Part shown: positions 3 through 22,174 of the stretch, in pieces | Layout of the letters: every line of letters starts with the position of its first letter | Numbering within the stretch: the first letter of the stretch is position 1 | From: a virus | Length of the DNA: 64,000 nt | Direction: 5' to 3' (one strand) | IMG/VR virus record: IMGVR_UViG_3300017991_000060 | Coordinates: 1 to 64,000 of that record | The notes under the pieces: generated by a model | Seen by the model: the letters and a program-made list of their open reading frames with translations, nothing else | What the model was told of the DNA's origin: nothing | Database searches by the model: none | Program-made: the position numbers and the translations under genes

Positions 3-413
3 CCTACCAAGGAACCACCACCCGCCCTTCCGCTTGCACTCGCCCTCCCGCTTGATCTTCTTCCACTCCCGCTCCTCCCAGTCCTTCGCCCACTTGGGGG
101 TACCCTGGTGAGCCGCCACCGCACCCCCGGCCGCCGCGGCGACGAAGGGGAACACTTCGTCAAGCTGCCTGCCGGATCGGCTGGACTGGTAGGAGTACCG
201 GAGGCTCTCCGAGAGGTGGAACTCGCCCCCGAGGGCCTCGGCGTCATCCCCGAGCATGTCCGCCACCCTGGAGTCGGTGGTGTAGGCCGTCACCCAGGTG
301 CCGGACTTCTCGGACTTGACACGCCATCGGTACGGTGGCTTCATCTCGATGAGGCGTTCGAACGCGACCGCCTCCGCATCGCCAGGGAACTCGAACGCCA
401 AACGGAATCTCAT
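3..413 (-). CDS. Hypothetical protein, runs off the left edge; carries an internal LSE-SLR-YSYQ-SSRSGRQ-LDE motif
   Basis: Manual translation from ATG 413 (ATGA overlap with the upstream stop): MRFRLAFEFPG...EFHLSESLRYSYQSSRSGRQLDEVFPF..., open to the window edge; not in the ORF track. Confidence 0.75.
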   Translation of the reverse strand, partial: MRFRLAFEFPGDAEAVAFERLIEMKPPYRWRVKSEKSGTWVTAYTTDSRVADMLGDDAEALGGEFHLSESLRYSYQSSRSGRQLDEVFPFVAAAAGGAVAAHQGTPKWAKDWEEREWKKIKREGECKRKGGWWFLGR

Positions 414-3400
414 CTTACCCTCCGATCCGACTTGCGTTTCCGCTTCGCTAGCCACTTGTCGTTGGCGCGCTTCCAGTCCGCTCGGATGTCGTCCTTCGTG
501 ACCTTCCCTGCGATGTACTTCTTGGCAAGCCCGATAGTGCGCGCGCCTGCTGGCTCGATCCCAAGCTCGCGGCCTTTCTCCGTAGGCTCGACCTGGAACG
601 TCCGTACCACCCTGGTGATGCTGTCACCGTAGGGACTGTCCGACTTCCGCACCATCATCTCGTCTTGGATCTTGTTGACCCGCGCGAGGTCCGAGACGAA
701 AACGTCGCTCTTGAGCACCATGCCCAAGTATCGAAACGCTTCTGTGACCCACAGGCGTCGTTTGCCGCTCGCGAACTCAGGCTGGAGGACTGACGCCCAC
801 AACAGACGCCGCGCGAGGTTGCGCGCGCCCTCTTTCAGTTTGCTCTCCGCCACCTGGAGGACCTCCAGGTCCGGGTACTCATCGGCCAGGTCCGCTACAG
901 CCTTCTCCGCGTCGGGCTCACAGTGGTGCCCCCAGGGCTCCAGCTTCCCGCCGCGCTTCCGGTCGAACTTGGACACTTGCCACGGGCGGCCGGGATCACA
1001 GTCACCGCGGACGGAACGGTGAATCATGAACTCCTGGCGGTTCTTCTTGGATCGTAGGTGCACGCCGTGCTTCGCGCCGCGAACCTTGCGGACCATCACG
1101 TTGGAACGCTCCGCGGTGCGGGCCATGCCCCGGATGACGTCCTTCATCGGCCCTTCGATGCGGAGCCGCTTGAAGCGGTCCTCGAACTCCTGGTAGGTCA
1201 TCGCTCCGTTCTTCACCTTGTCCAGAAGGTCGAACCCGAGGCCCAGGTCGTCTCCCTTCGCCTCGGCTAGCTCCTTTGGCGTGAGCTTCCAGGCGAGGAC
1301 CGGCCCTTGTAGCCGCTCGGCGTTGAACATGGCCCCGAAGAAGTTCTGCCAGTCCTGGTCGCTCCAGCCGCACTGGTAGCCCTTCGTCGTCTCGCCCCAG
1401 TCGCCCTTGTCCTCCGTGCGGTGGATCGCGGCGAGGATCTTCCCGCCCGGCTTTAGGAGACCGCGGGCGGCCATGAGGACCTGGTGGCGGAGTGCCATCG
1501 TGGGGACCACGTTCAGCACGTAGTTCACCATGATGGTGTCGTACCGTTTCAGGAGCGGCTTGATGTCCGGGTGGTGCACGGGGTCGTACCGGGCGAAATC
1601 GTGCACATCGTGGCCCGCGCCATAATCGAGGACATCCCCGGTGAGTAAGCCCTGGTCCTGGTACATCTTCGCCGGCCGGCTGATCTCCTTCCGCGCGAGG
1701 GCTGTGGCCCCGCCCATCACCTTGTCGATGGTGGCGTCCTCGACGATCTCCCTCCCCAGGTAGGCTTTGGTCAGGGCGTCGCTCGCGTGGGCGGCGACCT
1801 CGAACGGGCACGCCACGCTCTCCCCGCGCTTCTTCATCGCCTCCGTCAGCTTCGGAACGACCTCCGCCTCCCAGTACTTCTTGTAACCGATGCGGTTCCG
1901 GTCGGGGTTCAGCTTCTCCCAGGCGGAGGAGCGCGCCTTGCTCGCCTCCACGTCGAAGCCCTGATAGTCGTCTCGGACGAAGGCCCACTTGTGGTGGTAT
2001 ATCTGGGGGTTCTCCGCGTTGTAGGGACGATGTGCCGCCTGGGCCACACCCTTCGCCACGCTCCAAGAGTCGCCCACCGTCGGCTCATCCGCGGCGTTCC
2101 AGTCGGGGGAGCTGGTGAACGTCACCTCGTCCGTCTGGCGGTCCCATCGGATGATGGAGTACCGCGCATCCTGGGGGAGCGCCTTCTCGGCCTCGGCCAC
2201 CCGCTCGTTCGGGATGGGCGAGTCGTCGAGGGCGGTGTGATGCACGTAGACCTTAGAGCCCACGACCTTGCCGGGTTGCCGCGCTTCTGACTCCGTGACC
2301 ATCAGCCCAGAGGACTCCTCCAGGCTGGCGCCGAGGCGGCCGACGTTCGGGTTGAAGTCGTAGGAGTACCCGTCCGGGCTCCGCCGGAGCGACTTGTCCA
2401 GGAGGTTGTCGATGGAATCGCCCAGCCCCTCGATGCCGGAACGGCTGAGCTCGTACCAGTCCCCATCCGTCGGGTCCCAGACAAAGAGGTCTCGTGCCGG
2501 GACAGACCCCCGCGAGAAGTAGTAGTCGTACTTGTTCTCCATGTCCTCGCGGTACTCGACCCCGTGCCGCTTCTTCACCTGGTAGGAGAGGACCACCACC
2601 GTACGGTCCCGGTGCGCCTCACGCCACTTCTCCTCCAACTCCTCCGGGTCGCCCCAACTGACGTAGAACTCTTCCCACTCCTCTTCTGTCTCCGGCTTCT
2701 CATCGAGAGGGGGGAACTCTGGGGCGCCGTACTCTGCGTGTTGTCCGAGCACGATATACCAGTTGTCCACGCGGTCGGCCGTCGCGACGAACACCTTGCC
2801 CCGGCTGTGTCCGGCGTAGGCCGGGGCGGTCGCGCCGATTCCACCACCCCCGGCGCCCGGCTTCAGCCCGTGGCGTCGAATGCTTTCCAGATGCCCGAAG
2901 TACGTGACGTGGTAGAGCCAAGTGTCCTCCGGCACATTGACCTTGTCTCGGAAGGCCATCTCCGCCAGCTCGGGGGCGGACTCGGCCGCGCGGTGGATGC
3001 GTGCGCCACTATGCTTCAACAGTGCCTCCAGCCCGAAGTGCTTGGGGCGGAGACGCTGTAGCTCGTCCCAAGTCACCCACTCCGCCAGCGCGGTTTCCCA
3101 GTTGAGCTTTGGTTCGAACTCCTCATCCACGAGGCCGATGAAGTTCGAGTACCGGAAGCCGCCCCCAGGCGATGTGAACACGTAGGCGGGGAAGAGATCG
3201 ATGTCACCGCGGTACCCAAGCTCTTCCTCAATCTCTCGAAGCGCGGCCTTCTTCGGGTCCTCCCCCGCATCAATGGCTCCCCCAAAGACGCCCCAGGTGT
3301 TGGGCTCGTTTACGTGGGGGGAACGTAGGCCAACCAAGATGCGGCCGGTCCTGGGGCAGATGGGAAGCACCCCAGCGCCAGCGTTGCCCCAGAACGGCTC

Positions 3401-3472
3401 ACCGCCAGCGTGGGTGTACGCCGCTTCTAGAAAGTCCCGCACCCATTTCCCGGCGATCTCAGAGAGGTTCAT
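410..3472 (-). CDS. Polyvalent polyprotein: NUDIX hydrolase, ADP-ribosyltransferase-like, Dnd-associated-MTase-like domain, class I SAM methyltransferase and two unknown modules
   Basis: Nudix box GGAIDAGEDPKKAALREIEEELG; YHVTYFGHLESIRRHGLKP; GKVVGSKVYVHH...YHHKWAFVRDDY; VLDYGAG...NYVLNVV; GGAGG RBS before ATG 3472. Confidence 0.8.
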   Translation of the reverse strand: MNLSEIAGKWVRDFLEAAYTHAGGEPFWGNAGAGVLPICPRTGRILVGLRSPHVNEPNTWGVFGGAIDAGEDPKKAALREIEEELGYRGDIDLFPAYVFTSPGGGFRYSNFIGLVDEEFEPKLNWETALAEWVTWDELQRLRPKHFGLEALLKHSGARIHRAAESAPELAEMAFRDKVNVPEDTWLYHVTYFGHLESIRRHGLKPGAGGGGIGATAPAYAGHSRGKVFVATADRVDNWYIVLGQHAEYGAPEFPPLDEKPETEEEWEEFYVSWGDPEELEEKWREAHRDRTVVVLSYQVKKRHGVEYREDMENKYDYYFSRGSVPARDLFVWDPTDGDWYELSRSGIEGLGDSIDNLLDKSLRRSPDGYSYDFNPNVGRLGASLEESSGLMVTESEARQPGKVVGSKVYVHHTALDDSPIPNERVAEAEKALPQDARYSIIRWDRQTDEVTFTSSPDWNAADEPTVGDSWSVAKGVAQAAHRPYNAENPQIYHHKWAFVRDDYQGFDVEASKARSSAWEKLNPDRNRIGYKKYWEAEVVPKLTEAMKKRGESVACPFEVAAHASDALTKAYLGREIVEDATIDKVMGGATALARKEISRPAKMYQDQGLLTGDVLDYGAGHDVHDFARYDPVHHPDIKPLLKRYDTIMVNYVLNVVPTMALRHQVLMAARGLLKPGGKILAAIHRTEDKGDWGETTKGYQCGWSDQDWQNFFGAMFNAERLQGPVLAWKLTPKELAEAKGDDLGLGFDLLDKVKNGAMTYQEFEDRFKRLRIEGPMKDVIRGMARTAERSNVMVRKVRGAKHGVHLRSKKNRQEFMIHRSVRGDCDPGRPWQVSKFDRKRGGKLEPWGHHCEPDAEKAVADLADEYPDLEVLQVAESKLKEGARNLARRLLWASVLQPEFASGKRRLWVTEAFRYLGMVLKSDVFVSDLARVNKIQDEMMVRKSDSPYGDSITRVVRTFQVEPTEKGRELGIEPAGARTIGLAKKYIAGKVTKDDIRADWKRANDKWLAKRKRKSDRRVR

Positions 3473-3537
3473 ACCGTCCTCCATCCCCTGGAGGATACCA
3501 AGCTCGGCAGCCAGCGGCTAGAGAGCTCCTCCCTACC

Positions 3538-3568
3538 GTTTGACAGACGGGGCGCAATCGGGTATTGT
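3538..3568 (+). promoter_or_regulatory. sigma70-type promoter
   Basis: GT-TTGACA-N17-TATTGT upstream of the plus-strand cassette. Confidence 0.8.
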
Positions 3569-3606
3569 TGCCCCTGGGGCAATGGTGCCCAGGAAAGGAG
3601 CGAACC

Positions 3607-4224
3607 GTGAGCAACATATTCGTGTGCGAGCACCGGGGCTACGCGATCACCATCAACTGCAATGGGAGGTTCCTGGCGGAAGTGCCGAGCCTCCGAAACG
3701 ACGACACCATCCACCACATCAGCGAGAAGACTCTCGACGACGCGAAGGCCGCCATCGACGCGAAGATCGGCGCGGACAAGCGGAAGCCCATCAACATCCC
3801 TGTCACCGTGGTAGGGCTCGACGACGGCCGGAAGTACAGCGCCAACCGACGGCCCGAGCGCGTGGTGGACGGGACCCTCATCGGCATCAACGCCTCCAGC
3901 GGGAAGTTCCGCGTCAAGGACAAAGACGCGACCCACCAGTTCACCTCGAACTACGGCAAGTGCCAAGTGATCCTCCAGGACGACCCGGAACGCGATGCGA
4001 TCCTCGCGGCCTTCCGCAAGATGAACGACGCCGACAAGGCGGCTCGTGAGGCAACCGATGCGTTCAGGGCTGCCATCAAGGGGCACGTCATCGAGGGCGG
4101 CGGCTACGGCACGAACAGCCACAACGTCATCGAGAAGGAGCGGGCTCTCGTCGAGAAAGCGGAGAGCCTCCGCGCCTCCTGGGCTAAGACGGGGAAGGCT
4201 AAGAAGAAGGGGAAGGGGAAGTAG
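3607..4224 (+). CDS. Hypothetical protein
   Basis: GTG start after AGGAG; GC3-rich codons; basic C-terminus. Confidence 0.75.
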   Translation: MSNIFVCEHRGYAITINCNGRFLAEVPSLRNDDTIHHISEKTLDDAKAAIDAKIGADKRKPINIPVTVVGLDDGRKYSANRRPERVVDGTLIGINASSGKFRVKDKDATHQFTSNYGKCQVILQDDPERDAILAAFRKMNDADKAAREATDAFRAAIKGHVIEGGGYGTNSHNVIEKERALVEKAESLRASWAKTGKAKKKGKGK

Positions 4225-4225
4225 G

Positions 4226-4723
4226 ATGGGCGAGAGCTCGCACGAGACGCAGACCCGCGAGCTCCTCGCGGAGCACGGGAAGTACATCCGGAACACGAAG
4301 CACGGCGAGCTCTGGGAGATCCCGGTCGGTACCTCCGGCCGGGTGATGACCCCGGACTCGAACGGGCACGGCGGAGGGGGTGGTGCGGAGCACCGCGCCT
4401 GGAAGAACGCCCTGGCGGATGTCCGCCGGGTGCTGCGTGAACACCAGCGGCCGGAGGCCGATGAGGAGGACGACGTGGCGACAACCAGGACGGAGATGAT
4501 CCAAGCGGCCGGGGTCCACCTAGAGACGACGACGAAGAAGATTGTGGAGCGCACAACTCGCGCGGTGCTTGACAAGGCGGCGCTTCTACAGATCGTGCTC
4601 GGCATCGACGGGATCGACGACGGTGACACCGTGAAGCTCGACATCGAGGACCTCGGAATCGAGGCCGTGCTCGGGGCCAACTTCCATTGCACCGTCACGC
4701 ACATCAGCGTCAGAGAGGAGTAG
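4226..4723 (+). CDS. Hypothetical protein with HicA-like N-terminal domain
   Basis: RNTKHGELW...RAWKNALADVRRVL pattern; ATG one base after the upstream TAG. Confidence 0.5.
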   Translation: MGESSHETQTRELLAEHGKYIRNTKHGELWEIPVGTSGRVMTPDSNGHGGGGGAEHRAWKNALADVRRVLREHQRPEADEEDDVATTRTEMIQAAGVHLETTTKKIVERTTRAVLDKAALLQIVLGIDGIDDGDTVKLDIEDLGIEAVLGANFHCTVTHISVREE

Positions 4724-4726
4724 GCC

Positions 4727-5089
4727 ATGATCGACATCAAGGCGGAGGGCGTTCCGCTCGGGCGCACGAGCGGCATCATCATGGCGGCGGCCGACAGTCT
4801 GCACCCGCTCGTCGCCCGCTACCAGGCCGGGCGCGCTGACCTGGAGCGGACGTGCCTGTGCATCGAGCACGAGGTTCGCACGGCCGCCCTCGGATGTGGT
4901 GGGAACTGGAAGGACATCCGGGTCATGTGCGACGCGGCCACGCAGTCGCCGGAGACGCTAGAAGCACGCAAGGTGCGCCTCACGTTCGGCATCAAGGTAG
5001 GGCCGACCCCGGAATGGACTGGCGGCCACTTCATCCTGGGATGCGAGCTCGGCGCGTTGATGGTTGAGTACCAACCGTGGGAGGTGTAA
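4727..5089 (+). CDS. Hypothetical protein
   Basis: ORF coupled in the plus-strand cassette. Confidence 0.65.
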   Translation: MIDIKAEGVPLGRTSGIIMAAADSLHPLVARYQAGRADLERTCLCIEHEVRTAALGCGGNWKDIRVMCDAATQSPETLEARKVRLTFGIKVGPTPEWTGGHFILGCELGALMVEYQPWEV

Positions 5090-5090
5090 C

Positions 5091-6356: not shown

Positions 6357-6360
6357 CTTC

Positions 6361-6789: not shown

Positions 6790-6791
6790 CG

Positions 6792-9503: not shown

Positions 9504-9506
9504 GGC

Positions 9507-10222: not shown

Positions 10223-10264
10223 CGTCCACCTCCCTATAGGTTTGGTCCCCACCTCACCGGCCCA

Positions 10265-10501: not shown

Positions 10502-11356
10502 CTAGCCCTTGGGCGTCACCTTCTCCATCCATCTCTCCCGCTCGGAACGAGGGAGAACGTTCCACGTCTCCGCCGAGAGCTTGTCCCAATCGGTGTGGTC
10601 GATGTGGCCCGTCGGCTTGCCGCCGAAGAAGTGGGTGACTTGCCACTCGACGCCGGGGCGCGTGCTCGGGTGGAGCACGTACTGCCGTCCGCCGCCAAGC
10701 TCGACCACGTAGATGTCCTTGTCCGAGTACACGTCCATCAGGTGGGCGTCGAAGAGGTCGCGCGCCTTCTTCATGTTCATCGGGTCGCGCGGGTCCAGGG
10801 GCACGAGGTCGTACCGCCTCACCTCGGCCGAGGTGAGGGGGCGGTCGTAGACCAAGACGCCGTGCTTGAAGCGCGGGTTGGAGCTCTTGCGCGTGCGGAC
10901 CCAGCCCTTCTCGGGGGAGCCGCCAGAAAGGATGGGACGCGCCCACACCCCGTACTCGAACTCGCGGGCCAACGCCCCCTCGCTCACCTCGTACGTGTAA
11001 GTGGGCTCGGCGTCCTCGGTGATCTCGCCCTCGCGCACCTTGACAGAGATGTCCGGCACGCCCGCGGCAAGGGCGCGGTCCGCGAGGAGCTTCTTGTTCT
11101 TCGTCGCCCAGGGCACGCCCTTCAAGTCGGAGATGGTGCGGGCGAAGGCGAAAGCGTGGGCCTTCTTGCTGTAGGAGCCGATGACGATGCCGCCGGTGGG
11201 GAGGTGGATCACCGGCCACGGGCTCCCGTACACGTCGGGCATGGCGGCCTTCCGGTTGAAGGTGGCGATGTGCGGCCCGAACAGCCAGCCCTTCACCTGG
11301 AGCCCGGCCTCTTCCCACGCCGGGCCAAGCGTAAACGTCCCTGCCCTCGCCTTCAT
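10502..11356 (-). CDS. Modular protein with DarA C-terminal-like (defence against restriction) domain
   Basis: YGVWARPILSGGSP...FKHGVLVYDRPLTSAEVRRYDLVP; internal ITE..TYTYEVSE. Confidence 0.7.
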   Translation of the reverse strand: MKARAGTFTLGPAWEEAGLQVKGWLFGPHIATFNRKAAMPDVYGSPWPVIHLPTGGIVIGSYSKKAHAFAFARTISDLKGVPWATKNKKLLADRALAAGVPDISVKVREGEITEDAEPTYTYEVSEGALAREFEYGVWARPILSGGSPEKGWVRTRKSSNPRFKHGVLVYDRPLTSAEVRRYDLVPLDPRDPMNMKKARDLFDAHLMDVYSDKDIYVVELGGGRQYVLHPSTRPGVEWQVTHFFGGKPTGHIDHTDWDKLSAETWNVLPRSERERWMEKVTPKG

Positions 11357-12225: not shown

Positions 12226-12228
12226 CCC

Positions 12229-12852
12229 CTACACCTCGATCCCAAAGCCTTCGATCTTCTCGATGGTCTTCGCGAGCATCCCCTCCACGTCCGAGAGGTC
12301 GCCCAGAGGGATGCCCTGGACACCAAGGCGACGGTCCTCGAAGGGGAGATGCAAGCGGTACTTGCCCTTCGTGCCGGTGACCTTCAGCTTGTCCCAGCGC
12401 GCGGTACGTAGGAGGTGGGAAAGGGCGTTGAAGAAGAGGCGGCGGGCGGCATCCTTCTTCTCGGTGGCACTCGGCTTCGCCCCCTTGGCCTTAGCCTTCT
12501 TCTTCGGGGGCAGCACGAGGACGGAGCCGCCTTTGAAGTCCACGAAGAGGAGGGCGTCGTGGAGGTAGGGGGTGCTGGCGGAGACGGACCGTTTCCCGAA
12601 GAGGTTGCGCCACGCGCGCTCCCCAGCCTTCTTCGCCCCCGCCACGTTCGCCGCGCCCGAGTCGAAGCTCCACGCCTGGATGAGCGGGTTCGTGCGGCTC
12701 ACGCGAAGGACGCGTATCGGGCCGTGGGGGCGGTCGGGGAACTGGGGGTCCGGGCCAATAGCCGCGATCCCCGCGGGCTTGAGGAACTGGTACGGGGAGA
12801 GGACCTCCCAATCCCCTACAGGTTTGGTGCTCGACTCGTACGTGTACCCCAC
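12229..12852 (-). CDS. Hypothetical protein with MGYTYESS leader
   Basis: GGGAGG precedes GTG 12852, in frame with the track ORF. Confidence 0.7.
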   Translation of the reverse strand: MGYTYESSTKPVGDWEVLSPYQFLKPAGIAAIGPDPQFPDRPHGPIRVLRVSRTNPLIQAWSFDSGAANVAGAKKAGERAWRNLFGKRSVSASTPYLHDALLFVDFKGGSVLVLPPKKKAKAKGAKPSATEKKDAARRLFFNALSHLLRTARWDKLKVTGTKGKYRLHLPFEDRRLGVQGIPLGDLSDVEGMLAKTIEKIEGFGIEV

Positions 12853-12963: not shown

Positions 12964-15900
12964 CTACTTCCTCAACCGCCGTTTCCGGCGCTTCCTTGGC
13001 GGTCCCGACTTGTGGTCCGACTCGTGATCGAAGGCGGCACGGTTCGCCAGGTTCCCCGCCGCGTTGTTCCTGGTGTTCCCATCCTTGTGGTGAACGTGCT
13101 TCCCGTCCCCCACACGGGCCTTGCCCTTCTTGATGAGCTTGTACCGGGCGCGGTTCCTCGCGCATCGGTCGTCCTTCCGAGCGCGCGTCTCGCGGGCGTA
13201 CTCGGCGCGGTAGTCCCGCTCGCGCTCCTGGAGCCGTGACCCTTCCCGCCACTTCGAGCCGAGGTCCGTCAAGCCGGAGGGCGGGATGCTCTTGAGCCCG
13301 TGGTGGCGCTTGATCTCCTGGAACATCGCCGTGGCAACACCGCGCCGGCGGTGCTCCTCGGGGACTTCGATGTGGTCGATGCGCGCCGTGCCGTCATCGA
13401 AGTACGAGTACTCCACCTTCCCCACCACGCGCCCGGCGTGGTCTCGGGCGATGAGGCCCATGTAGTGCTGCCCCTGGTAGCTGTCCGTGTGGAGGTGCTC
13501 GAAGCGGAGCCCGAGGGCCGGCATGATGGCCGGCTTGCCGTGCCGCTTCTCCAGGTAGCGGAGGATGGTGTCCTCGCTCGGGGAGGTGGGCGCGTGCTCC
13601 AGGTGCAAGCGCCCGCCCTTCCAGGAGGCGAAGCGCCCGCCCCCCATCCAGAGGAGGTCCAGGGCCACCCCGTCCGTCCAGAGCTTCGCGGACTCCGCCG
13701 GCCGCCGCGCGAGGAAAGCGTCGATGACCTTCTTGTGCGCCGGCGTGAGCTCGATGCGCTCCATCACGATCTCTCGCCCGTGTAGGTACCCCTTTGCGGC
13801 GAAGTCCTGATGCAGCGCGAGGGCATCCGGGGTGCGGTCGTCAGAGACGAGCAGCTTGCCGCCCTGCTCCCTAGCCCACCGCGCGGCGTGGCGGTACATC
13901 TTCGTCGCCCATCCCCTACGTTGGAAGGCGGGCCACACCATCACGTTGCTCACCTCGAACCCGCCCGGCACGGGCACGACAGCGATCTCCCCCACCTCCT
14001 TCCCACCGTCCCGGAAGATGAACTGGTGCTTGCCTCCGTAGCTGGCGTGCTGTATCGCCGCTTCGGTGAGCCCGCCGCCGTGGGCCTTGTGCACCGCCAT
14101 CACGGCCGGAACGGCGCGCCTCACCACGTCCTCGGCCGGACCATCCAGGACCAGGAGACCCATGCGCGCGAGCATGGGGAGGGTGTAGGGGGGCGAGATG
14201 CGGTACCGTCGGCTCACCGGGTCCTTCATCCACCCGCGCTTGCCGCGCTTCTCCCGCGCGAGCCACTGGTCGCAGTCGTCGTTCGGGTTCGAGGGGGTGA
14301 GGTGGCCTTGCTCGTCGTCCATCTGATGCTTCGTCACGTCCGGGCGCGCGGTGTCGTAGTGCTTCCAGACACGGTACGCCGCGGGGGAGAGGTCCTGGCG
14401 ATCCGAGATGAGCCCACCGCCCATGATCGAGGCGAGCTCGATGGCCACGTCGTAGAGTAGCGGCCCGAAGCCGTGATCGGAGCGAGAGAAGTCCACCTCC
14501 CAAGCACCATCGCACGGCGTCTCCGGGTTGTCGATGCGCGCGATGGTGATCCGGCCCGCGGGGCGCGCGGCCGGGGAGTCAGCCTCCAGGTCCCAGTACT
14601 GGGTGAGGATGATGTTGTTCCCGGCGCGGACCCAGACCCCTACACCGGGCGGGAGCGCCTGGGGTCCCTTCGCCGCTTCGGTGAGCGCGCCGCGGATGGT
14701 GTCCTCGCGGTCGCCGCCGTCGATCACCAGGCGGTCCATGCGCGCCAACATGGGGAGGGTGTAGGGAGGGTCGATCACGTACCGGCGAGAAATGGGGTCC
14801 TTCACCCACCCGCGCTTGCCGTACTTCTGCCGCGAGAGCGCCTGGTCACAGTCGTCCTCTGGGCGCGCCGGCGTCAGCGTCCCGTACTCATTGTCGAGCT
14901 GGTGCTTCTCCACGTCCGGCCGCTTGGTGTCGTAGTGCTTCCAGACTTTCCGCGCCGAGTTGGAGACGGACCGGCGATCCGAGATGAGGCCGCCGCCCAG
15001 GATCGAGGCGACCTCCACCGCGGCGTCGTAGAGGAGCGGCCCGAAGCCATGCGTCGCCCCGGACATCTTCACCTCCCACGCACCCTCGCACGGCCAGATG
15101 CTCTCGACGCGATGGAACGTGATCTCCCCCTCCAAACCTGGCCGCTCGGACGGCTCCCCAGTTTCGAGGTCACAGTAGTACACCTTGCTGATGTAGTTAC
15201 CGGCGCGCACGCCGATTCCGATGCCCGACGGGAGGTCGCGCGGCCCCTTCGCCACCTCGTCGAGCGCGGCCACCCGCTCCCGGATGTGTAGGCGTTCAGT
15301 CAGGTCAGCCCGGAGGGCGTCCTCGGCCTCCGCCATCTCCCAGGGGTCCAAAGGTCCAGCGAAGTCGCTCGGCTGCATGTCGGTGTGCTTCGCGAGGCGC
15401 TTCACCACTGACGGGATGTGCGGCCCGTTGTAGTAGAGGCGGCCCGCCTTCGCGAGCGCACGCATCGTGCTCCTCGGGTCCTTCTGGGAGCGCCGGAAGC
15501 GGCGGGACAGGGCGCTCAGGTGCCACGGGTCCGCGTCATCCTCGGCCGATCCCTGGTCACAGTCGTCGCTCGGGTCCTGGGGGGTGAGGTCGCCGTATTG
15601 GTTGTCGAGCTGTGCCTTCGTCACGTCGCGGCGGCGCTTGTCGTAGTAGCCCCAAACGCGGGCGGCGTCACCGGACACCGTGACCCGATCCGACATGAGC
15701 CCTCCCCCAGCCGCGGTGGCGAGCTCCATCGCCACGTCGTACAGGAGCGGCCCCCATCCACGGCCCGCCTCAGCGCCGGACACCATGAAAGCATCGCTAC
15801 ACGGGCCGTGCCCGCCGCGATCAATGCTCACCTCACCGCGCATCTCGGCCTCATCCTCAGCGGCGATGTCCCAGTACACCACCTGGAAGGAGTTGGGGCT

Positions 15901-17067
15901 GTAGGAGAGGAGGAGAACCACCATGTTCGGGTCCTCACGCACCAGGTCCGCCACACCCTTCGCGGATTCGACCAGGGCCGGGGTGCGGCGGCGCTCGGGA
16001 AGGAACTCCTTCCAATCGGCAGACTCAACCTCCACGTTCGGGGAGACGGCCTGCTTATAATCCGCCTCGAACTGCGGGACCCCCTCCCCGTAGACGCGGT
16101 ACAGCTTCTTCCACTTCTCGTCGTCGCGGGGCTCCACGTACATCGCGATGATCCGGTTCCGGCCGCGGAACCCTACAACGGACTGGAGGCGGCGGTGCGG
16201 CGCGATGGCCGTCGCCGTTTCGTACCGGCTCATCTCTTTCGAGATGCGGTCGAGCATCCGGCGATGCGCCTTTTCAGCTTGGGGGATGGTGGGGGCGAGG
16301 GCGTAGAGCTTCGCCTTGGTGATCTCCCAGGCGTCATCACCCTTCAGCCCGCGCATGAAGTCCCTGGCCGTCTTGCCGTCGAGCTTCATACCCTGGTCCA
16401 ACGCGGCTTGAACGAACTCGGGGCTATAGTATCCGGCGCGCTCTCTCTCCTCCTTCACGTAGTACGCCACGGCACGGTTGAGCTCTGTGTGTACCAGGGT
16501 CGGAGCCATGCGGCGGAGGAACTTCTCGTGCTCCGGATGGAGAGCCCCACCCATCCAGTGACGCGAGAGCTCCTCGATGAACGCCTCGGTGAACTTGTCC
16601 TCGACCTCGCGGCGGAAGGTGGCGTCAGCCTTCATCCGTGTCCACGTCTGAAACACAGTGTAGGAGTGGCCGAGGTCGAACATGTACCGGCCGGGGATGC
16701 CCATACCGCGTTCGAGGGCGCTCTTAACAGTCGTGTTAATGCGATCCTCGTCCCAGTACCCAGCCTTCTCCTGGGCCTCGATCACGATGTAGAGCTCCTC
16801 ACCACCGAACTTGCGCGCGGTGTTCCCAGCGGAGCTGCTGGCGGTGTGGAACTTCGGCGTAACGTAGACCCCACGGAGGGAAGCACGGCTGGGCCGCGTG
16901 GCGCTCGCGTCCGGGTCGGCCCGCCACGTCTTGTGCGTCGGTTCAGGGGAGAGCCCGTTCGCCATGATCGACTTGAGGAAGTAGGTGGAGGTTCCGTGGT
17001 ACACGATGCGACGATAGTTGAAGCGGCGCTCGTTGAGGACCTGCCACATCTGGTACGTGTAGGCCAT
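12964..17067 (-). CDS. Polyvalent polyprotein: ART-like, three tandem GNAT-like repeats, two further GNATs, HNH
   Basis: YHGTS..LKSIMANGL..GVYVT; G[WF]GPLLYD x3; QRRGWATKMY; HRRRGVATAMF; HVHHKDGNTRNN; AGGAGG before ATG 17067. Confidence 0.8.
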   Translation of the reverse strand: MAYTYQMWQVLNERRFNYRRIVYHGTSTYFLKSIMANGLSPEPTHKTWRADPDASATRPSRASLRGVYVTPKFHTASSSAGNTARKFGGEELYIVIEAQEKAGYWDEDRINTTVKSALERGMGIPGRYMFDLGHSYTVFQTWTRMKADATFRREVEDKFTEAFIEELSRHWMGGALHPEHEKFLRRMAPTLVHTELNRAVAYYVKEERERAGYYSPEFVQAALDQGMKLDGKTARDFMRGLKGDDAWEITKAKLYALAPTIPQAEKAHRRMLDRISKEMSRYETATAIAPHRRLQSVVGFRGRNRIIAMYVEPRDDEKWKKLYRVYGEGVPQFEADYKQAVSPNVEVESADWKEFLPERRRTPALVESAKGVADLVREDPNMVVLLLSYSPNSFQVVYWDIAAEDEAEMRGEVSIDRGGHGPCSDAFMVSGAEAGRGWGPLLYDVAMELATAAGGGLMSDRVTVSGDAARVWGYYDKRRRDVTKAQLDNQYGDLTPQDPSDDCDQGSAEDDADPWHLSALSRRFRRSQKDPRSTMRALAKAGRLYYNGPHIPSVVKRLAKHTDMQPSDFAGPLDPWEMAEAEDALRADLTERLHIRERVAALDEVAKGPRDLPSGIGIGVRAGNYISKVYYCDLETGEPSERPGLEGEITFHRVESIWPCEGAWEVKMSGATHGFGPLLYDAAVEVASILGGGLISDRRSVSNSARKVWKHYDTKRPDVEKHQLDNEYGTLTPARPEDDCDQALSRQKYGKRGWVKDPISRRYVIDPPYTLPMLARMDRLVIDGGDREDTIRGALTEAAKGPQALPPGVGVWVRAGNNIILTQYWDLEADSPAARPAGRITIARIDNPETPCDGAWEVDFSRSDHGFGPLLYDVAIELASIMGGGLISDRQDLSPAAYRVWKHYDTARPDVTKHQMDDEQGHLTPSNPNDDCDQWLAREKRGKRGWMKDPVSRRYRISPPYTLPMLARMGLLVLDGPAEDVVRRAVPAVMAVHKAHGGGLTEAAIQHASYGGKHQFIFRDGGKEVGEIAVVPVPGGFEVSNVMVWPAFQRRGWATKMYRHAARWAREQGGKLLVSDDRTPDALALHQDFAAKGYLHGREIVMERIELTPAHKKVIDAFLARRPAESAKLWTDGVALDLLWMGGGRFASWKGGRLHLEHAPTSPSEDTILRYLEKRHGKPAIMPALGLRFEHLHTDSYQGQHYMGLIARDHAGRVVGKVEYSYFDDGTARIDHIEVPEEHRRRGVATAMFQEIKRHHGLKSIPPSGLTDLGSKWREGSRLQERERDYRAEYARETRARKDDRCARNRARYKLIKKGKARVGDGKHVHHKDGNTRNNAAGNLANRAAFDHESDHKSGPPRKRRKRRLRK

Positions 17068-17201
17068 GAGACACATCCTCCTAGCCCGCCACGATACCAG
17101 ATGCGGCGGCTTAGTTCACGCTGTTGGGCGGGTCGCGTACGCGCACGCCAGGCACTTGCTCGACTCGGGGTCGATGGGTTGGCGCTGCTCGGGTTGATCG
17201 C

Positions 17202-17465
17202 TCATTCGGTCGCCCCCTCTACGGCTTCCACGTCTCCGATGTTGTCTTTCCACTCGCACGCGATAGCGGCGTTCGCCGTCATCATGGCCATCCGCACCTT
17301 GCGGATGGCCGCGCTCTGATCCGGCCCGGCCGGGGTCATGTTCAGGATGATCTTCGCGAAGGCCCGCGCGCCGTCGCGCAACGCCTCGTAGCGTTCCGCC
17401 TGGTCCCTGTCCGGGGGATGGTACGTGAACCAGGTATCCAAGTCTCGTTCGGTGAGAATCCTCAT
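17202..17465 (-). CDS. Acb2/Tad1-hairpin-like small protein (candidate immune-signal sponge)
   Basis: WFTYHPP..DQAERYEALR...AIRKVRMAMMTANAAIA family pattern, recognised from memory. Confidence 0.55.
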   Translation of the reverse strand: MRILTERDLDTWFTYHPPDRDQAERYEALRDGARAFAKIILNMTPAGPDQSAAIRKVRMAMMTANAAIACEWKDNIGDVEAVEGATE

Positions 17466-17504
17466 CGTTCGCTTCTCCTCCCTACCCATCAAGTGCTTAT
17501 CCTC

Positions 17505-17795
17505 TCAGAAGTCCGTCATCGCTTGCTGTAAGATGGGACGCTTCGCAGGTGAACCGTAGAATCCCTCACATACGCCAGGCGTAGGGGGGCTCGGCGGCAA
17601 CGCCCGCTCCGCGTCGTCCGCCCCCTCCAGGAACCGGGAGAGCCGGTCGCGGAGGTGACGCGCACCGTGTTGGTCGAGGGCCACCCGGAACACCTCGCGG
17701 GTCAGCGGGTCCGAGGCGGCCAAGATGAACTCGTCGCGGGACGCCCACCCCGACCCGCTGTAGGTGAGGCCGCTCGGAGAGACGTGGGAGCTCAT
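17505..17795 (-). CDS. Hypothetical protein ending LQQAMTDF
   Basis: ATGA coupling. Confidence 0.6.
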   Translation of the reverse strand: MSSHVSPSGLTYSGSGWASRDEFILAASDPLTREVFRVALDQHGARHLRDRLSRFLEGADDAERALPPSPPTPGVCEGFYGSPAKRPILQQAMTDF

Positions 17796-18184
17796 ACAAT
17801 GTCCTCCCGCTTGTTCCAGGGCATGGGGGTCCCGTTCGCAACCCACTCGTCCACAAAGTCCCAGGTACCATCGAACCGGAAGCCGCGGTCATCCGCGTAG
17901 GCCACCGCGCCGGGCTTCTCCCCTGCCGCCACGGCGTCCACCTCGATGCCGTGGAGGTCGAGCCACTGCTTCACGGCCCGCACGCCACCCGGCTCATTGC
18001 AGCGCGCCGACATCACCACCACGTCGAACCGTTCGCGGAGCTTCGCCACCGCCTCTCGGGCGCCGGGCACCGGCCCGTCGCAGACCGTCTCCACATCCAC
18101 CCAAGGGGACGTGTAGGCATGGATCACGCCGTCGAAGTCGAGGACTACGGCACGCCGCGTGCCCGTCGGGGGCATCCAAACCAT
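17792..18184 (-). CDS. HAD-family phosphatase (nucleotidase/PNKP-like)
   Basis: VVLDFDGVIH; VVVMSAR; KPGAVAYADDRG. Confidence 0.8.
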   Translation of the reverse strand: MVWMPPTGTRRAVVLDFDGVIHAYTSPWVDVETVCDGPVPGAREAVAKLRERFDVVVMSARCNEPGGVRAVKQWLDLHGIEVDAVAAGEKPGAVAYADDRGFRFDGTWDFVDEWVANGTPMPWNKREDIV

Positions 18185-18984
18185 CACGCGCCCCCGTTGA
18201 AGATAGCCGCGCGGAGCCGCTCCCCGTTCACGTCGTCGGCCTTGACATCCCCCACGGCCCACAGGAGGGCCTCCCTGATCGTAGGGGAAGCCCTCTCCGC
18301 CACCTTCCGCACCTTGGCCTTGGAGGGGCGCACCGACGACTTGCGCCGCCGCCTAGGCTTCCCGGAGGGCGTCGGGGCGGGGAGGTCCTCCTCCGCCAGC
18401 TTCGCCTCCTGGTCCTCGCGGCTCATGGTGGTGTAGGGCTTCGCGGCGGCCATCGTCATCTGGCCGCGCTCGACGGCCCGGCGCACCGGCGGGGAGAGGT
18501 CGAGAAGAGCGAGGTACCGCTTCACCTGGATGGAGCTCAGCCCCCACGCCGCGGCGGCCTCGTCCACCGTGCGGCCGGTGTCCAGGTACCGCTGCATCTT
18601 CTCGGCCTTCTCCATCAGGGTGTCGCCCCTACGGAGCTCGTTCAGGAACACCATCATGTCGATGATGCGGTCGTCGCTCCCGCGCTCCACCTCGCACGGG
18701 ACCATGAGGCGCTCGCCGCCCATCTCCTCCAGGCGGCGGTTCGCCTCGCGGCAGTTGATGACCCTACGGCGGCCGTCCACCACCTCGATGGAGTCACCGT
18801 TCTTCCGCACCTTGATGGCGACCTTCACCCCAAACGACATCATGTTCCGCACGATCTTCTCGTCCGGCGGGAGGTTCACCCGAGGGTCGTAGAGCGGGTG
18901 CGCCCTGTCGGTGATGAGCGTCAGGATGTCAGGGTCCAGGAGGAACGCCTGACGCCGCTTCCCCGGAAGTGCCTGGCCTCCCAT
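18184..18984 (-). CDS. ParB/Spo0J-like protein
   Basis: HPLYDPRV...IEVVDGRRRV; HTH-like region. Confidence 0.75.
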   Translation of the reverse strand: MGGQALPGKRRQAFLLDPDILTLITDRAHPLYDPRVNLPPDEKIVRNMMSFGVKVAIKVRKNGDSIEVVDGRRRVINCREANRRLEEMGGERLMVPCEVERGSDDRIIDMMVFLNELRRGDTLMEKAEKMQRYLDTGRTVDEAAAAWGLSSIQVKRYLALLDLSPPVRRAVERGQMTMAAAKPYTTMSREDQEAKLAEEDLPAPTPSGKPRRRRKSSVRPSKAKVRKVAERASPTIREALLWAVGDVKADDVNGERLRAAIFNGGA

Positions 18985-18985
18985 G

Positions 18986-19213
18986 TTACTTCCCCTTCCT
19001 CTCGAACTCTTGAAGCCTCCGCTCGTGGTCAGTGGCTTCCTCCTGCATGTAGGTCACGTCCGAACGGAGCGCGGCGACCTCGGCCTCCAACTCGACAACC
19101 CGCACGCGGAGCTGCACTTCTCCCTGGGCGGCGCCACGCTCGGCGTGCATCGCCATGCCAATGACCGCAACCGCCAAGCAGATGATGACGGCCAGGCTCA
19201 TACGATCTCCCAT
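18986..19213 (-). CDS. Small membrane-anchored coiled-coil protein
   Basis: LAVIICLAVAVIGMAM followed by a coiled coil. Confidence 0.55.
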   Translation of the reverse strand: MGDRMSLAVIICLAVAVIGMAMHAERGAAQGEVQLRVRVVELEAEVAALRSDVTYMQEEATDHERRLQEFERKGK

Positions 19214-19316
19214 CCCTACACTCCTTTGAACCAGCGGCAGGCGCTCCCGATCCCGTCGAGGGCGTGCAAGAGTAGCCCCAGGAGGCACCCTGAAGCCCAC
19301 GACTTACGCCGCCCGC

Positions 19317-19511
19317 TCATATCTCGCCCGCCTTCCTCATTCGCTTCAACATCTTCCCGGCCGCTTCGGGCTCCATGCCGGTGAACTCCTCCACATCGAC
19401 AACGAGGTCCTCCCAGGCATGTCGCCTTGACTCATGCTCATTCTGTAGGGCCTGCCACCGTCCGCGAATCCACGACTTCATCATCGCGAGGTTGAACTCG
19501 TCGGTGCCCAT
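19317..19511 (-). CDS. Small hypothetical protein
   Basis: ORF track; coupled. Confidence 0.55.
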   Translation of the reverse strand: MGTDEFNLAMMKSWIRGRWQALQNEHESRRHAWEDLVVDVEEFTGMEPEAAGKMLKRMRKAGEI

Positions 19512-19780
19512 CAGAAGTCCGTCATCGCTGCGCTGAAGTTGTCGCGGCTAGCGTCGCTCTCCAGCATGTGCCTCGGTACCCCTACGGCCTTGCCAATCTC
19601 GGTGAGCGCCTGCCTCGGCGGCACGTCCACCGGGGCTGGAAGGCGCTTCAGGCTGGCGGGGTCGTGGCAGCACTCGCCGGGTTCAACGGCGTCGGCGCGC
19701 GCCTGGGGGCACTCGATCAGCTCGCCGCGCTCGCGACACAGAACCCTACAGAACCCACCGCCCCAATGTCCACAAGGCAT
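19511..19780 (-). CDS. Cys-rich hypothetical protein ending FSAAMTDF
   Basis: GGAGGAG before ATG 19780, downstream of a promoter. Confidence 0.6.
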   Translation of the reverse strand: MPCGHWGGGFCRVLCRERGELIECPQARADAVEPGECCHDPASLKRLPAPVDVPPRQALTEIGKAVGVPRHMLESDASRDNFSAAMTDF

Positions 19781-19799
19781 AACGCCCTCCTCCCCGGCA

Positions 19800-19830
19800 A
19801 CAATACCAGGGCGGAGGGCGTATGTCAAAC
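19800..19830 (-). promoter_or_regulatory. sigma70-type promoter
   Basis: GT-TTGACA-N17-TATTGT. Confidence 0.8.
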
Positions 19831-19845
19831 GGTGTAGGGTCGGCG

Positions 19846-20150
19846 TCAGTCGGCGGGGGGCTCGGCCGGGGGGTCCTCGTCCGCCAACCCGGTCGCCTCC
19901 AGGATCTTCCCGAGGACCACCTGGGGAACGCCCAGGCCGCGGGCTGCATCCGCGATCTTCATCTTGCTTCGCTCGTGTTCGCCCCCGCCATGAAGATGGA
20001 CATAACCTGTACGACCCAGAAGTTGTCGGGGAGCTTGTCGGTGATGTAGGGGGCCGCGAGGACGAGCCCCGCGATCACGAGAAGGAGAAGGCTGAACTTC
20101 CCCTCGCTAGTCTGTAGTCCCGTCCTTCCGCCCTTCGTCTGCTCGCTCAT
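19846..20150 (-). CDS. Holin-like membrane protein split into two frames (19959-20150 and 19846-19962)
   Basis: GLQTSEGKFSLLLLVIAGLVLAAP plus a second hydrophobic segment; frames joined by an ATGA overlap. Confidence 0.4.
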
Positions 20151-20442
20151 CTCCGCCTCCAAGTTGCGCTTCATCGAACACGCGAATGATGTGCGTCCTC
20201 ATGCTTGCCGGACAAGTGCACTTGCCGCCGTTGCTCACGGCCGGACAGCCCTTCAAGTGCTCCCCCGTTTCCCTACGTCGGCCGACCTCCGCCGTGAGCT
20301 CGATGAAGAGCTTGAGGTTGATCGGCCGCGAGTCGTTCACCCGTTCCAGGATGCGCCGCCGGAGGGCCGGGTCATCCTTGATCTTCTGGAGGGCATATCT
20401 CCGTTGCCGCGCGAGCTGGGCTTCCAGTTCGGGGTGATCCAT
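20107..20442 (-). CDS. Hypothetical protein
   Basis: ORF track; H..CP..CTC. Confidence 0.6.
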   Translation of the reverse strand: MDHPELEAQLARQRRYALQKIKDDPALRRRILERVNDSRPINLKLFIELTAEVGRRRETGEHLKGCPAVSNGGKCTCPASMRTHIIRVFDEAQLGGGDERADEGRKDGTTD

Positions 20443-20445
20443 GCC

Positions 20446-20748
20446 CTACCTCTCTTCCTCGGCGTCTGCCTCAGCTACTCCGAACACCTCTTTCTGCCAA
20501 TCGATCTGGTCACGGAGGAGCGCCTCTACCTTCTCGCTGTAGCGCGTCTCCAACTTGCGTTCGCGAGCGTGCCAGGCGGCCCGGCACTTCTTGCACTCCT
20601 CGCGCTCCTTCAGGATGTGGCGAACGAGAAAGATGACAGCCACGATGCACAACGCCGGTACCCCGCCCTGGGTGATGATGTCAACCAGTCCGGCCGTTCC
20701 TCCGGTCGTTGTCGCATCTACCGTCGCTTGTGCCTGTGCCAGAATCAC
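20446..20748 (-). CDS. Holin-like single-TM protein
   Basis: QGGVPALCIVAVIFLVRHILKE followed by a charged coiled coil. Confidence 0.5.
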   Translation of the reverse strand: MILAQAQATVDATTTGGTAGLVDIITQGGVPALCIVAVIFLVRHILKEREECKKCRAAWHARERKLETRYSEKVEALLRDQIDWQKEVFGVAEADAEEER

Positions 20749-20966
20749 CGATACCTCCTAGACCTATCCGCATCCCCTAGTGTACTCGCAGCTAAGGCCC
20801 GCCGCTCATCGAACTCTCGTGCCAATGCGTCAACCGCTTCCCGCGGAAACGTCTGTAGGTGATCCGGCCTCAGCAAAACCCCCTTCCGCACGTACTCCCC
20901 GAGGAGGAGCTTAGAGCACGCGCCGAGCACGCAGGCCGCGTCGGCGTAGTGGATACGTTCCGTCAC
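20745..20966 (-). CDS. Small HTH-like protein
   Basis: GTG 20966; YADAACVLG...EYVRKGVL. Confidence 0.4.
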   Translation of the reverse strand: MTERIHYADAACVLGACSKLLLGEYVRKGVLLRPDHLQTFPREAVDALAREFDERRALAASTLGDADRSRRYR

Positions 20967-21367
20967 CTCACGCTGCGTGCAATGGACATCAGCTCGTACT
21001 GTAGGCCCTGGTCGGTGACTTCCTTGGACAACGCCGCGGCGTCCCAGGTGTTCCAGTTCACCGGCATCTCTTCGACGATCTTCACCACCTTCTTCGCCGT
21101 GGCGAGGTCGCGGATGTCGTGCATCATCCCGAGGCCGGTGGGAAGGTGCGTGAGCACCCAGTCCTTGGTCGCCCCGGTACCCCACGAGTGTAGGCCCCAC
21201 AAGCGGCCCTTACCCACGATGTGACCCTTCACCGTGCGCGGCCCGTCATCCTCCATGATCTTGAACGAACCGCGGCCGGCACGCTTCGGCTTGTTGAGCG
21301 GCTCCGTCATGGCCCGGCGCTTTCCGCCTCTCCGCCTCGCTTCGCTCATCTCGTACGTGAACCGCAT
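20963..21367 (-). CDS. Hypothetical protein with MRFTYEMSEA leader and HLPTG module
   Basis: AGGAGG RBS; WVLTHLPTG resembles WPVIHLPTG in 10502-11356. Confidence 0.75.
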   Translation of the reverse strand: MRFTYEMSEARRRGGKRRAMTEPLNKPKRAGRGSFKIMEDDGPRTVKGHIVGKGRLWGLHSWGTGATKDWVLTHLPTGLGMMHDIRDLATAKKVVKIVEEMPVNWNTWDAAALSKEVTDQGLQYELMSIARSVR

Positions 21368-21376
21368 GGCCGCCTC

Positions 21377-22174
21377 CTACTTCTTCGTCGGGTTGCCGAG
21401 GGCCGAACCGTACGAGCGGCCAACCTTGAGGAGCGTGTTGATGTCGAGTGGGACCACCAGGGACTTGAGCGTGAAGTTCGGGGTCGCGAGGAAGCCCTGC
21501 CCGAAGCGGTGGTGCCCATCGAGGATGTAGTCGTCGGAGCTCACGATGATGGTAGCACTCGTGGCGAGAAAGCCGCCGATTTCGGGCACGCCGAAGGCGA
21601 TGATCGACGCGATGCACTTGTCGAACCAAATCTCTCCCTGTAGAGGTTTCAGGGTCTTCACGGCGCGCATGACGACGGGGGCGCGGAGCTTGTCGTCGTT
21701 CGGGTCGCCGTCGCGCTGGCCGAGGACGGTCCACTCGATGTCACCGAACATGGGTGGGCTGGAGTGCTGCCACGGGAAGGGGTCGCCAGGAACGCACTGG
21801 GCGCACGCCATGTCCATGTCGGCGTGCGGGGAGAAGATGTCTACGTTTCCGGCGCGGATGTCCTGCTCGAACTGGCCGATGTCATCGGGCTCGATGACGG
21901 GCATCCGATCCCTGGGGATCGGGAGGGCGTGGCGCATCTTGGCCTTGAGCTGCGTGTAGTTCCGGTCGAAGTCTGGGAGCTCGGTGTCGAGGTCCAGGCC
22001 GACGGCCGAGAACATGCGCTCCGCCACCCGGCGCGCCTCCTGCGGCGACGTGGTGGCGACGTTGTGGGTGTAGCGACCCTTGTACCGCTTGAGATAGTCC
22101 TTGCCCCACGCCTCCTCCGCACTCGACCGCTCGACGATCATGGGGCCTTGGTACGACTCGTACGTGAACCGCAT
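21377..22174 (-). CDS. ParB/Sulfiredoxin-like domain protein with MRFTYE leader
   Basis: LKPLQGEIW; IIVSSDDYILDGHHR; GAGGAGGTG before ATG 22174. Confidence 0.75.
   Translation of the reverse strand: MRFTYESYQGPMIVERSSAEEAWGKDYLKRYKGRYTHNVATTSPQEARRVAERMFSAVGLDLDTELPDFDRNYTQLKAKMRHALPIPRDRMPVIEPDDIGQFEQDIRAGNVDIFSPHADMDMACAQCVPGDPFPWQHSSPPMFGDIEWTVLGQRDGDPNDDKLRAPVVMRAVKTLKPLQGEIWFDKCIASIIAFGVPEIGGFLATSATIIVSSDDYILDGHHRFGQGFLATPNFTLKSLVVPLDINTLLKVGRSYGSALGNPTKK

Follow-up and report, generated by a model that had tools for sequence, protein, structure and literature searches.

The first 64,000 nucleotides of the IMG/VR record IMGVR_UViG_3300017991_000060 (hereafter the window), a viral contig of 117,865 bp with 66% GC and almost all its genes on the minus strand, encode two large proteins of 1024 and 1370 amino acids (aa), P0001 and P0002. 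Both are chains of modules with the motif [LIV]-x-E at the junctions, where it also lies in many homologues; P0002 opens with a leader common to four other open reading frames (ORFs) of the genome, and the same contig encodes a prohead protease with conserved motifs. From this we infer, with about as much confidence as doubt, that P0001 and P0002 are polyvalent effectors which enter the capsid and are subsequently cleaved in trans by the prohead protease. Both would be co-assembled into the prohead core, P0002 via an N-terminal leader resembling the capsid-targeting sequence (CTS) of T4, P0001 via its own leader of ~20 aa or an internal MTYQEF segment. The protease would then cut after the Glu of [LIV]-x-E, removing the leader and severing the inter-module linkers, and the separated enzymes would remain in the head until injected together with the DNA, to act in early host take-over or in anti-defence.

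Modules and their junctions

The modules of P0001 (Table 1) were set by the end-points of 4338 matches from an exhaustive HMMER search. The sites that part them would be cut after residues 175 (LAE↓M; the arrow marks the predicted cut), 390 (LEE↓S), 398 (VTE↓S), 548 (LTE↓A), 582 (IVE↓D), 741 (LAE↓A), 880 (VAE↓S) and 885 (LKE↓G); in P0002 the cuts would follow residues 16 (LNE↓R), 370 (VES↓A...), 607 (LDE↓V), 800 (LTE↓A), 1005 (LTE↓A), 1106 (VME↓R) and 1284 (LQE↓R). All the sites that a preliminary description of this DNA had listed in the two proteins were found in place, the sole exception to the motif being FLEA, which has F rather than L, I or V at P3.

What exceeds chance is the position of [LIV]xE, not its number. 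Counted over whole proteins, the motif is not enriched relative to composition (19 sites versus 15.3 expected in P0001, 16 versus 15.6 in P0002), while [LIV]xE[ASG] occurs 8 times versus 3.5 expected in P0001 and 4 times versus 3.7 in P0002. However, all six homologue-defined junction intervals of P0001, 116 aa in total, hold a site (permutation p = 3.5e-4), as do three of the four P0002 junctions defined by outside homologues (p = 0.018). Six control motifs ([LIV]xD/K/R/Q, [AGS]xE and Ex[LIV]) are flat at the P0001 junctions (p > 0.1), so composition alone does not explain the pattern. An AlphaFold2 (AF2) model of P0001 built with 50 homologues is confident for modules A, C and D and moderate for E, and has linkers with a predicted local distance difference test (pLDDT) score <50 at 558-583, 740-748 and 878-888. 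Sites 582, 741, 880 and 885 lie in these linkers, 175 and 398 at domain edges and 548 where the last helix of module C ends. The earlier claim that the motif is concentrated at linkers is thus borne out, by the homologues described next as well.

Many P0001 matches are giant proteins of 2200-3100 aa with the same modules in other orders, and P0005 (2220 aa), P0017, P0006, P0124 and others carry modules A-E reordered. Among 28 proteins of at least 700 aa (P0001, P0002 and 26 matches), LTEA is the most over-represented 4-mer outside domains (10 observed, 1.1 expected), and in the large homologues L-x-E↓A is found directly ahead of new modules. Tests anchored on the conserved NUDIX motifs FWG and HFGL, picked without regard to the site, were run on ~90 homologues with 200 shuffles. 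On the N-side, [LIV]xE lies 8-30 aa before FWG in 52 of 77 NUDIX homologues (shuffles 23, maximum 34); on the C-side, it lies 12-45 aa after HFGL in 39 of 55 internal NUDIX modules (shuffles 24, maximum 33); no enrichment is seen for the controls [LIV]xD/K/R, [AGS]xE and Ex[LIV]. The median distance from HFGL to the end of stand-alone NUDIX proteins is 23 aa, where the motif sits in fused forms, which indicates that it belongs to the joint and not to the fold. Module E copies in P0017 and P0005 mostly end in V-x-E-[SA], one P0017 copy being an exception, and the copy in P0001 ends in VAE↓S followed by LKE↓G. DarA_C modules in homologues start right after ...E[A]↓FEYG.

These tests also bear on a chance coincidence, in which some of the 16-19 sites per protein would simply fall near boundaries that were chosen knowing the sites. 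Overall counts do equal expectation, the junction intervals are post hoc, having been drawn with the sites already in view, and a test on all ends of BLAST high-scoring segment pairs (HSPs) in 28 large homologues was negative (ratio 1.0; 1.36 for [LIV]xE[ASG], p = 0.06), although this is a crude test in which the zones covered 22-55% of residues. Nevertheless, the permutation result, the AF2 linkers, which are independent of the motif, and the motif-blind anchors in ~90 other proteins, where the observed counts beat all 200 shuffles on both sides, make chance a highly improbable explanation.

P0002 offers fewer comparisons. Searches of IMG/VR and metagenomes found no relative, and word-based searches returned only P0002 itself and one 339-aa fragment. 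Each of its three tandem GNAT-like repeats is headed by an invariant A-L-x-E-x-A-K-G, the sequence just upstream being variable. P0154, a fragment from a related phage, is from its residue 3 onwards 78% identical to P0002 1008-1111, and this match to GNAT 1 spans from right after LTE↓A to a conserved V-M-x-E↓R.

The enzymatic identity of the modules is less even than the preliminary description had it. The NUDIX domain and the two Pfam GNATs stand, the three repeats are GNAT-like, the methyltransferase is weak, HNH_3 falls below its cut-off and ADP-ribosyltransferase (ART) is a lead only, while DarA_C, which had been placed in the large proteins, has no Pfam match in P0001 or P0002 and lies in the neighbouring ORF 10502-11356, where it starts right after LARE↓FEYG with an internal TYTYE upstream. 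The NUDIX fold of module A was confirmed by Foldseek (E = 6.5e-9) and by a VIA Z of 16.4 to RenU 6uuf (model residues 23-172); fold searches with the whole P0001 model returned NUDIX matches only. A helical leader of ~20 aa ending in LSE↓I and FLE↓A precedes this module and LAE↓M follows it. Module B is delimited by its homologues in P0017, P0108, P0123 and P0005, stand-alone homologues of module C are 147-157 aa long, and the assignment of module D rests on weak Methyltransf_12/23 matches, a stand-alone 160-aa homologue (P0144) and a pLDDT >90. Module F has no homologue among the 4338 matches.

P0001 176-390 and P0002 17-361 are candidate ARTs by sequence. The P0002 module has sub-threshold matches to PARP (E = 0.16) and Tpt1 (E = 0.21), and its homologue P0150 reaches PARP at E = 0.012, while module B matches no ART-family profile. 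In a language-model atlas the neighbours of the ART-like modules, at 0.88-0.93, include PARP, Tox-ART-HYD1, Arr and DarT. A module B profile run against PDB sequences matched only the NUDIX parts of longer rows, with no ART, its AF2 model (six sequences) was unusable at pLDDT 38, and in the MAFFT alignment made for the P0002 N-terminal module the NUDIX portions of homologues outweighed the rest. No embedded peptidase domain capable of freeing the modules in cis was found in P0001 or P0002 at Pfam E ≤ 0.1 and PHROGs E ≤ 0.01, module B, module F and parts of P0002 being without assignment.

Leaders, head genes and prohead protease

The string M-x-[FY]-[TS]-Y-[EQ] starts five ORFs, P0002 among them. 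In its six frames the whole genome has only 8 copies of [FYWT][TS]Y[EQ], 5 of these exactly two codons past the start of an ORF supported by GC content at third codon positions (GC3). In three of the five the leader ends in a canonical [LIV]xE within 19 aa (LNE, IVE, LDE); of the other two, one has Met at P3 and the other, 12229-12852, has no site. The common leader announced in the preliminary description is therefore real for P0002 and four other ORFs and does not extend to the N-terminus of P0001, which has its own 20-residue helical segment ending in LSE and FLE. Leader-like strings also occur internally in P0154 and P0001, and the TYQEF of the internal MTYQEF of P0001 is identical to the core of the T4 CTS. 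The latter is MKTYQEFIAE (PMC8442874), in which residues 4 and 7 serve targeting and residues 8 and 10 processing (PMC8442874, PMC9026906). Many N-terminal NUDIX homologues from AT-rich phages open with T4-like strings such as MKTFENFNIE and MKYLKLFEE.

The 201-aa leader-bearing protein next to the portal gene has a weak match to S-adenosylmethionine (SAM) lyase (PF23780, 25.9 bits versus a cut-off of 28), and a homologue of this module is fused behind a NUDIX domain in P0059. This protein may be a capsid-delivered anti-restriction enzyme.

Judged by its genes, the phage is a myovirus whose head follows that of T4, with a portal like gp20, a capsid protein like gp23 and a gp21-type S77 prohead protease; a tail sheath is encoded beyond the window on the same 118-kb contig. 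It has no close relative among the 50,697 phage records of INPHARED (megablast, and tblastn with the region and P0002). The gp21-like protease expected elsewhere in the genome was identified in the first part of a 759-aa protein, of which aa 58-197 match PF03420 (37.5 bits versus a cut-off of 27) and which is also matched by phrog_207 (E = 1.8e-17). Its QLEHPS and GLSSRGNGS align with ELNHPP and GVSSRGLGS of T4 gp21, conserving the HP and SSRG motifs, whose His and Ser we take to be the catalytic residues of a gp21-type protease. The protease domain matches 552 phage records, mostly gp21 of T4-like cyanophages and also vibriophages; a phmmer search of PDB with the protease failed to retrieve gp21. 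PF03420 was present on one of five IMG/VR fragments that carry module C.

The specificity of this protease for [LIV]-x-E is predicted from its putative substrates. In the capsid protein, as in three relatives at 68-90% identity, the N-terminal 87 aa are variable, and an invariant [LV]-x-E then comes before the conserved core TSRAS, which is the pattern expected of a maturation site. T4 gp23 is cleaved at FLTE↓A, and this LTE↓A is the same string as at three junctions of the proteins studied here. There is also an excess of [LIV]xE in proteins encoded around the protease and portal genes.

Two further observations concern the head region. The S77 domain is followed on the same chain by a C-terminal extension of ~530 aa with a long acidic tract (aa ~548-606) and many [LIV]xE sites (21 versus 14 expected); this may be a protease-scaffold fusion. 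Between portal and protease, the minus strand encodes large unannotated proteins of 943, 967, 305 and 596 aa (genome 84594-91162 and 101623-103413), which have an excess of [LIV]xE and share modules with the NUDIX polyvalent proteins P0018, P0010, P0012, P0015, P0017 and P0005. These common modules were considered as proof of a head location and downgraded, the proteins being unannotated and the region including a UvrD helicase.

Table 1. Coordinates of the features discussed, in window positions unless marked genome (outside the window)
Feature	Position	Strand	Remarks
P0001, 1024-aa polyvalent protein, six modules parted by [LIV]xE	410..3484	-	gene caller start 3472
Module A, NUDIX hydrolase, aa 23-172	2969..3418	-	Pfam PF00293 E=1.4e-14; AF2 pLDDT >90
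Module B, aa 176-390, classed as ART-like solely on the motif LYHVTYFG...	2315..2959	-	ends LEE↓S, VTE↓S
Module C, aa 399-548 (homologues to ~550), phrog_16075, function not assigned	1841..2290	-	ends LTE↓A; AF2 pLDDT 95-98
Module D, aa 583-741 (homologues ~581-737), SAM-methyltransferase-like	1262..1738	-	IVE↓D before, LAE↓A at end
MTYQEF string, aa 762-767, in inter-module segment 742-790	1184..1201	-	segment follows LAE↓A
Module E, aa ~790-880 (homologues to ~877)	845..1117	-	recurs in P0017, twice in P0005; AF2 pLDDT 65-83
Module F, helical basic tail, aa 886-1024	413..829	-	
P0002, 1370-aa polyvalent protein	12964..17076	-	MAYTYQ start at 17067
CTS-like 13-residue leader of P0002, MAYTYQMWQVLNE	17029..17067	-	
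P0002 N-terminal ART-like module, aa 17-361	15994..17028	-	IVYHGTS motif; homology to P0139, P0150
Three tandem GNAT-like repeats, aa 371-545, 608-800, 801-1005	14062..15966	-	
GNAT 1 (aa 1006-1106), intervening segment, GNAT 2 (to 1284)	13225..14061	-	Pfam; GNAT 1 from LTE↓A to VME↓R, GNAT 2 to LQE↓R
P0002 C-terminal HNH-like basic tail, aa 1285-1370	12967..13224	-	HNH_3 E=3e-4 (below cut-off); phrog_7545
284-aa protein, DarA_C at aa 133-187	10502..11356	-	PF18789, 28.2 bits versus cut-off 27
Leader-bearing protein, MGYTYESS..., function not assigned	12229..12852	-	GTG start; no [LIV]xE site anywhere
Leader-bearing 134-aa basic protein, MRFTYEMSE↓A...	20963..21367	-	
Leader-bearing 265-aa protein, MRFTYESYQGPMIVE↓R...	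21377..22174	-	
Leader-bearing 201-aa protein, MGFSYETF...LDE↓A	genome 105429-106034	-	adjoins portal gene
Extended -10-like element, TGGTATCCT	3492..3500	-	20 nt upstream of P0001 start
Same -10-like class	17091-17099	-	before P0002
Same -10-like class	22200-22208	-	before 21377-22174
gp23-type major capsid protein	genome 76276-77736		
759-aa protein, Peptidase_S77 (T4 gp21) in first 200 residues	genome 79356-81635	-	
gp20-type portal	genome 103592-105424		Portal_T4 PF07230 E=1.5e-22

Known systems and the question of cleavage

The concept of packaged multi-effector proteins has been published by Iyer, Burroughs, Anand, de Souza and Aravind (2017; PMC5512222) for the polyvalent proteins that conjugative elements and phages encode. 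These are chains of two to fifteen effector or enzyme domains unrelated to one another, frequently though not obligatorily with an embedded peptidase (PMC5512222). P0001 and P0002 resemble them in carrying many unrelated conflict-type enzyme domains per chain, in coming from a portal-terminase phage, in their predicted delivery with the DNA and in the extensive shuffling of modules between relatives. They differ in that release there is attributed to embedded peptidase domains (MPTase and others), whereas here the junctions carry the motif of a separate prohead protease. A text search of PMC5512222 returned no 'linker' and prohead protease only in one reference, and neither a junction motif nor a CTS-like leader is described in it.

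Internal proteins IPI-III (IP) and Alt of T4 likewise have a short N-terminal leader on otherwise unrelated proteins, which ends in (L/I)-x-E in T4; the core T-Y-Q/E is common with MKTYQEFIAE and the protease is of the gp21 family. T4 Alt is a packaged ART that gp21 cuts at both ends, and in T4 processing is prevented by Asp at P1 (PMC9026906). Unlike these single-function substrates, which lose short propeptides, the proteins described here would separate into up to seven or eight modules, the leader has the register M-x-[FY]-T-Y-[EQ], and the phage has 66% GC, 118 kb and no close cultured relative. The systems of phiKZ gp175 and SPN3US gp245, which act on inner-body and ejection proteins, share an S77-family protease, Glu in a three-residue motif and many head-internal substrates, some of them multi-site, but the motif in these phiKZ-like giants is [S/A/G]-x-E, and the long N-terminal propeptides are removed from substrates that are mostly non-enzymatic or subunits of virion RNA polymerase (vRNAP). 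Finally, the head-packaged anti-defence proteins DarA, DarB and DdrB of P1 share only the small DarA_C domain, found here in ORF 10502-11356 and the homologue P0017; P1 has in addition a packaging order and DdrB autoprocessing. Since cleavage in the characterised S77 systems removes propeptides and Alt is trimmed at both ends, the splitting of several enzymes from one chain would put a known machine to a new use.

In another explanation, P0001 and P0002 would be packaged and injected essentially whole, losing at most an N-terminal leader, the joints being vestiges of fused leader-bearing genes or recombination joints. The varying module order in homologues, the two copies each of DPLTEA and EAEWGTGAHA in P0005 and the internal leader-like strings of P0154 and P0001 would all fit such a history, N4 vRNAP is an example of a published polyvalent protein that enters the capsid without processing (PMC5512222), and known S77 substrates lose only propeptides. 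It seems difficult, however, to see how an exposed L-x-E↓A in linkers of pLDDT <50 could be protected from an active Glu-specific prohead protease, and the junction motif is kept in homologues of <50% identity in which its flanks are not. We therefore hold packaging without cleavage to be unlikely, though it deserves real weight.

Several points count against cleavage in trans of packaged P0001 and P0002, besides the flat whole-protein counts and the HSP-end test given above. In SPN3US, all known S77 cleavages except self-cleavage remove N-terminal propeptides, and enzymes are not split (PMC10052503). Two of the five leaders are without a canonical site and the N-terminus of P0001 is without the shared leader. 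Between 6 and 12 [LIV]xE sites lie inside domains, five of them in the NUDIX core, so accessibility, not sequence, must decide cutting. The homologues are related by descent, and family-wide counts are therefore not fully independent, while for P0002 almost no relatives exist in which conservation could be tested. Lastly, the promoter-like elements of effector and head genes differ (see below), so that expression of the effectors may not coincide with that of the head genes.

A broader proposition, which we put forward tentatively and would not yet call probable, is that the S77 prohead protease of phages with T4-type heads has a second task, the release of modules from polyvalent effectors. 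The CTS-like leader and [LIV]-x-E↓[AS] joints would then form a cassette grammar by which any module (NUDIX, ART-like, GNAT, methyltransferase, DarA_C or SAM-lyase-like) could be added to the capsid cargo, one gene product being delivered as separate enzymes, and dozens of lineages, ranging from uncultured myoviruses of high GC to T4-like phages rich in AT, would have this grammar in common. If true, head maturation proteolysis would be linked with polyvalent anti-defence proteins, two fields so far treated apart, and the delivery of many pre-made enzymes from one gene without an embedded protease would be explained. A sequence rule (leader plus L-x-E↓A joints) would predict capsid cargo and mature effector boundaries from genomes. 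It would also suggest that the T4 capsid-targeting system, already used for packaging foreign proteins, long predates the T-even phages and extends well beyond them.

Neighbouring genes, promoter-like elements and other phages

The first 22 kb are an accessory island with an Acb2/Tad1-like sponge, an HNH endonuclease, Ros/MucR-like and ParB-HTH proteins and the DarA_C protein. Polyvalent homologues elsewhere add Acb1 (P0061) or DarA_C (P0017), and neighbourhood and homologue domains fit an anti-defence role, without proving it.

Sequences of the form TG[GC]TA[GT]nnT occur 12 times on the minus strand, six of them intergenic and 20-60 nt ahead of a start codon. Three elements of TAT type (TGnTATnnT) stand before P0001, P0002 and 21377-22174, and three of TAG type, with TGGAAC 17 nt upstream, stand before virion genes (genome 70258-70286, 76172-76200 and 84578-84606, minus strand). 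The late-type TGGAAC-N17-TAGnnT is not present before the effector genes, and the two types suggest two promoter classes, putative at this stage. A k-mer search for a shared promoter returned only the Shine-Dalgarno motif and a non-significant 8-mer.

This setting is where a purely cytoplasmic role has to be considered: P0001 and P0002 would be multi-domain enzymes synthesised after infection and never packaged, the leader a translation initiation context or N-terminal fold element, and the motif the mark of Glu/Ala/Leu-rich helical linkers. They are encoded among non-structural genes, 60-100 kb from the head genes and behind a promoter-like element unlike that of virion genes, and the NUDIX homologue nearest to them among cultured phages, gp100 of BcepSaruman, is encoded by a gene of its own in a nucleotide-metabolism neighbourhood, without a clear site. 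On the other side, the IP and alt genes of T4 are likewise scattered away from the head genes. Moreover, junctions show no enrichment of the reversed motif or of controls that keep the hydrophobic position but have D, K, R or Q at P1, and the leader is similar to the T4 CTS known from experiments, TYQEF included. We consider such a role improbable on balance.

A few neighbouring and related genes are worth recording. Immediately upstream of P0002, the minus strand encodes a 96-aa Acb2/Tad1 hairpin protein (window 17202-17492; PF24729, E = 2.3e-12), a member of an anti-CBASS/anti-Thoeris sponge family, and window 24727-25608 (minus strand) encodes an MT-A70 family adenine methyltransferase (PF05063, E = 5e-20). 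An ORF starting MRFRLAFEF (window 3-413, minus strand), with YSYQ...LDE↓V inside, overlaps the P0001 stop (ATGA) and is truncated by the beginning of the contig. A contig of 124,239 bp has the same set of proteins, and the present record may lack ~6 kb or a terminal repeat. The 944-aa P0061 combines Acb1 (an anti-CBASS nuclease, E = 5e-24), NUDIX and a LYHAT ART-like module in one protein. In Vibrio phage KVP40 (NC_005083, 231409-232371), KVP40.0371 consists of module C, then NLTE↓S, then a second domain, and is flanked by two genes annotated as prohead protease inhibitor (inh); it provides a cultured system in which junction cleavage is testable.

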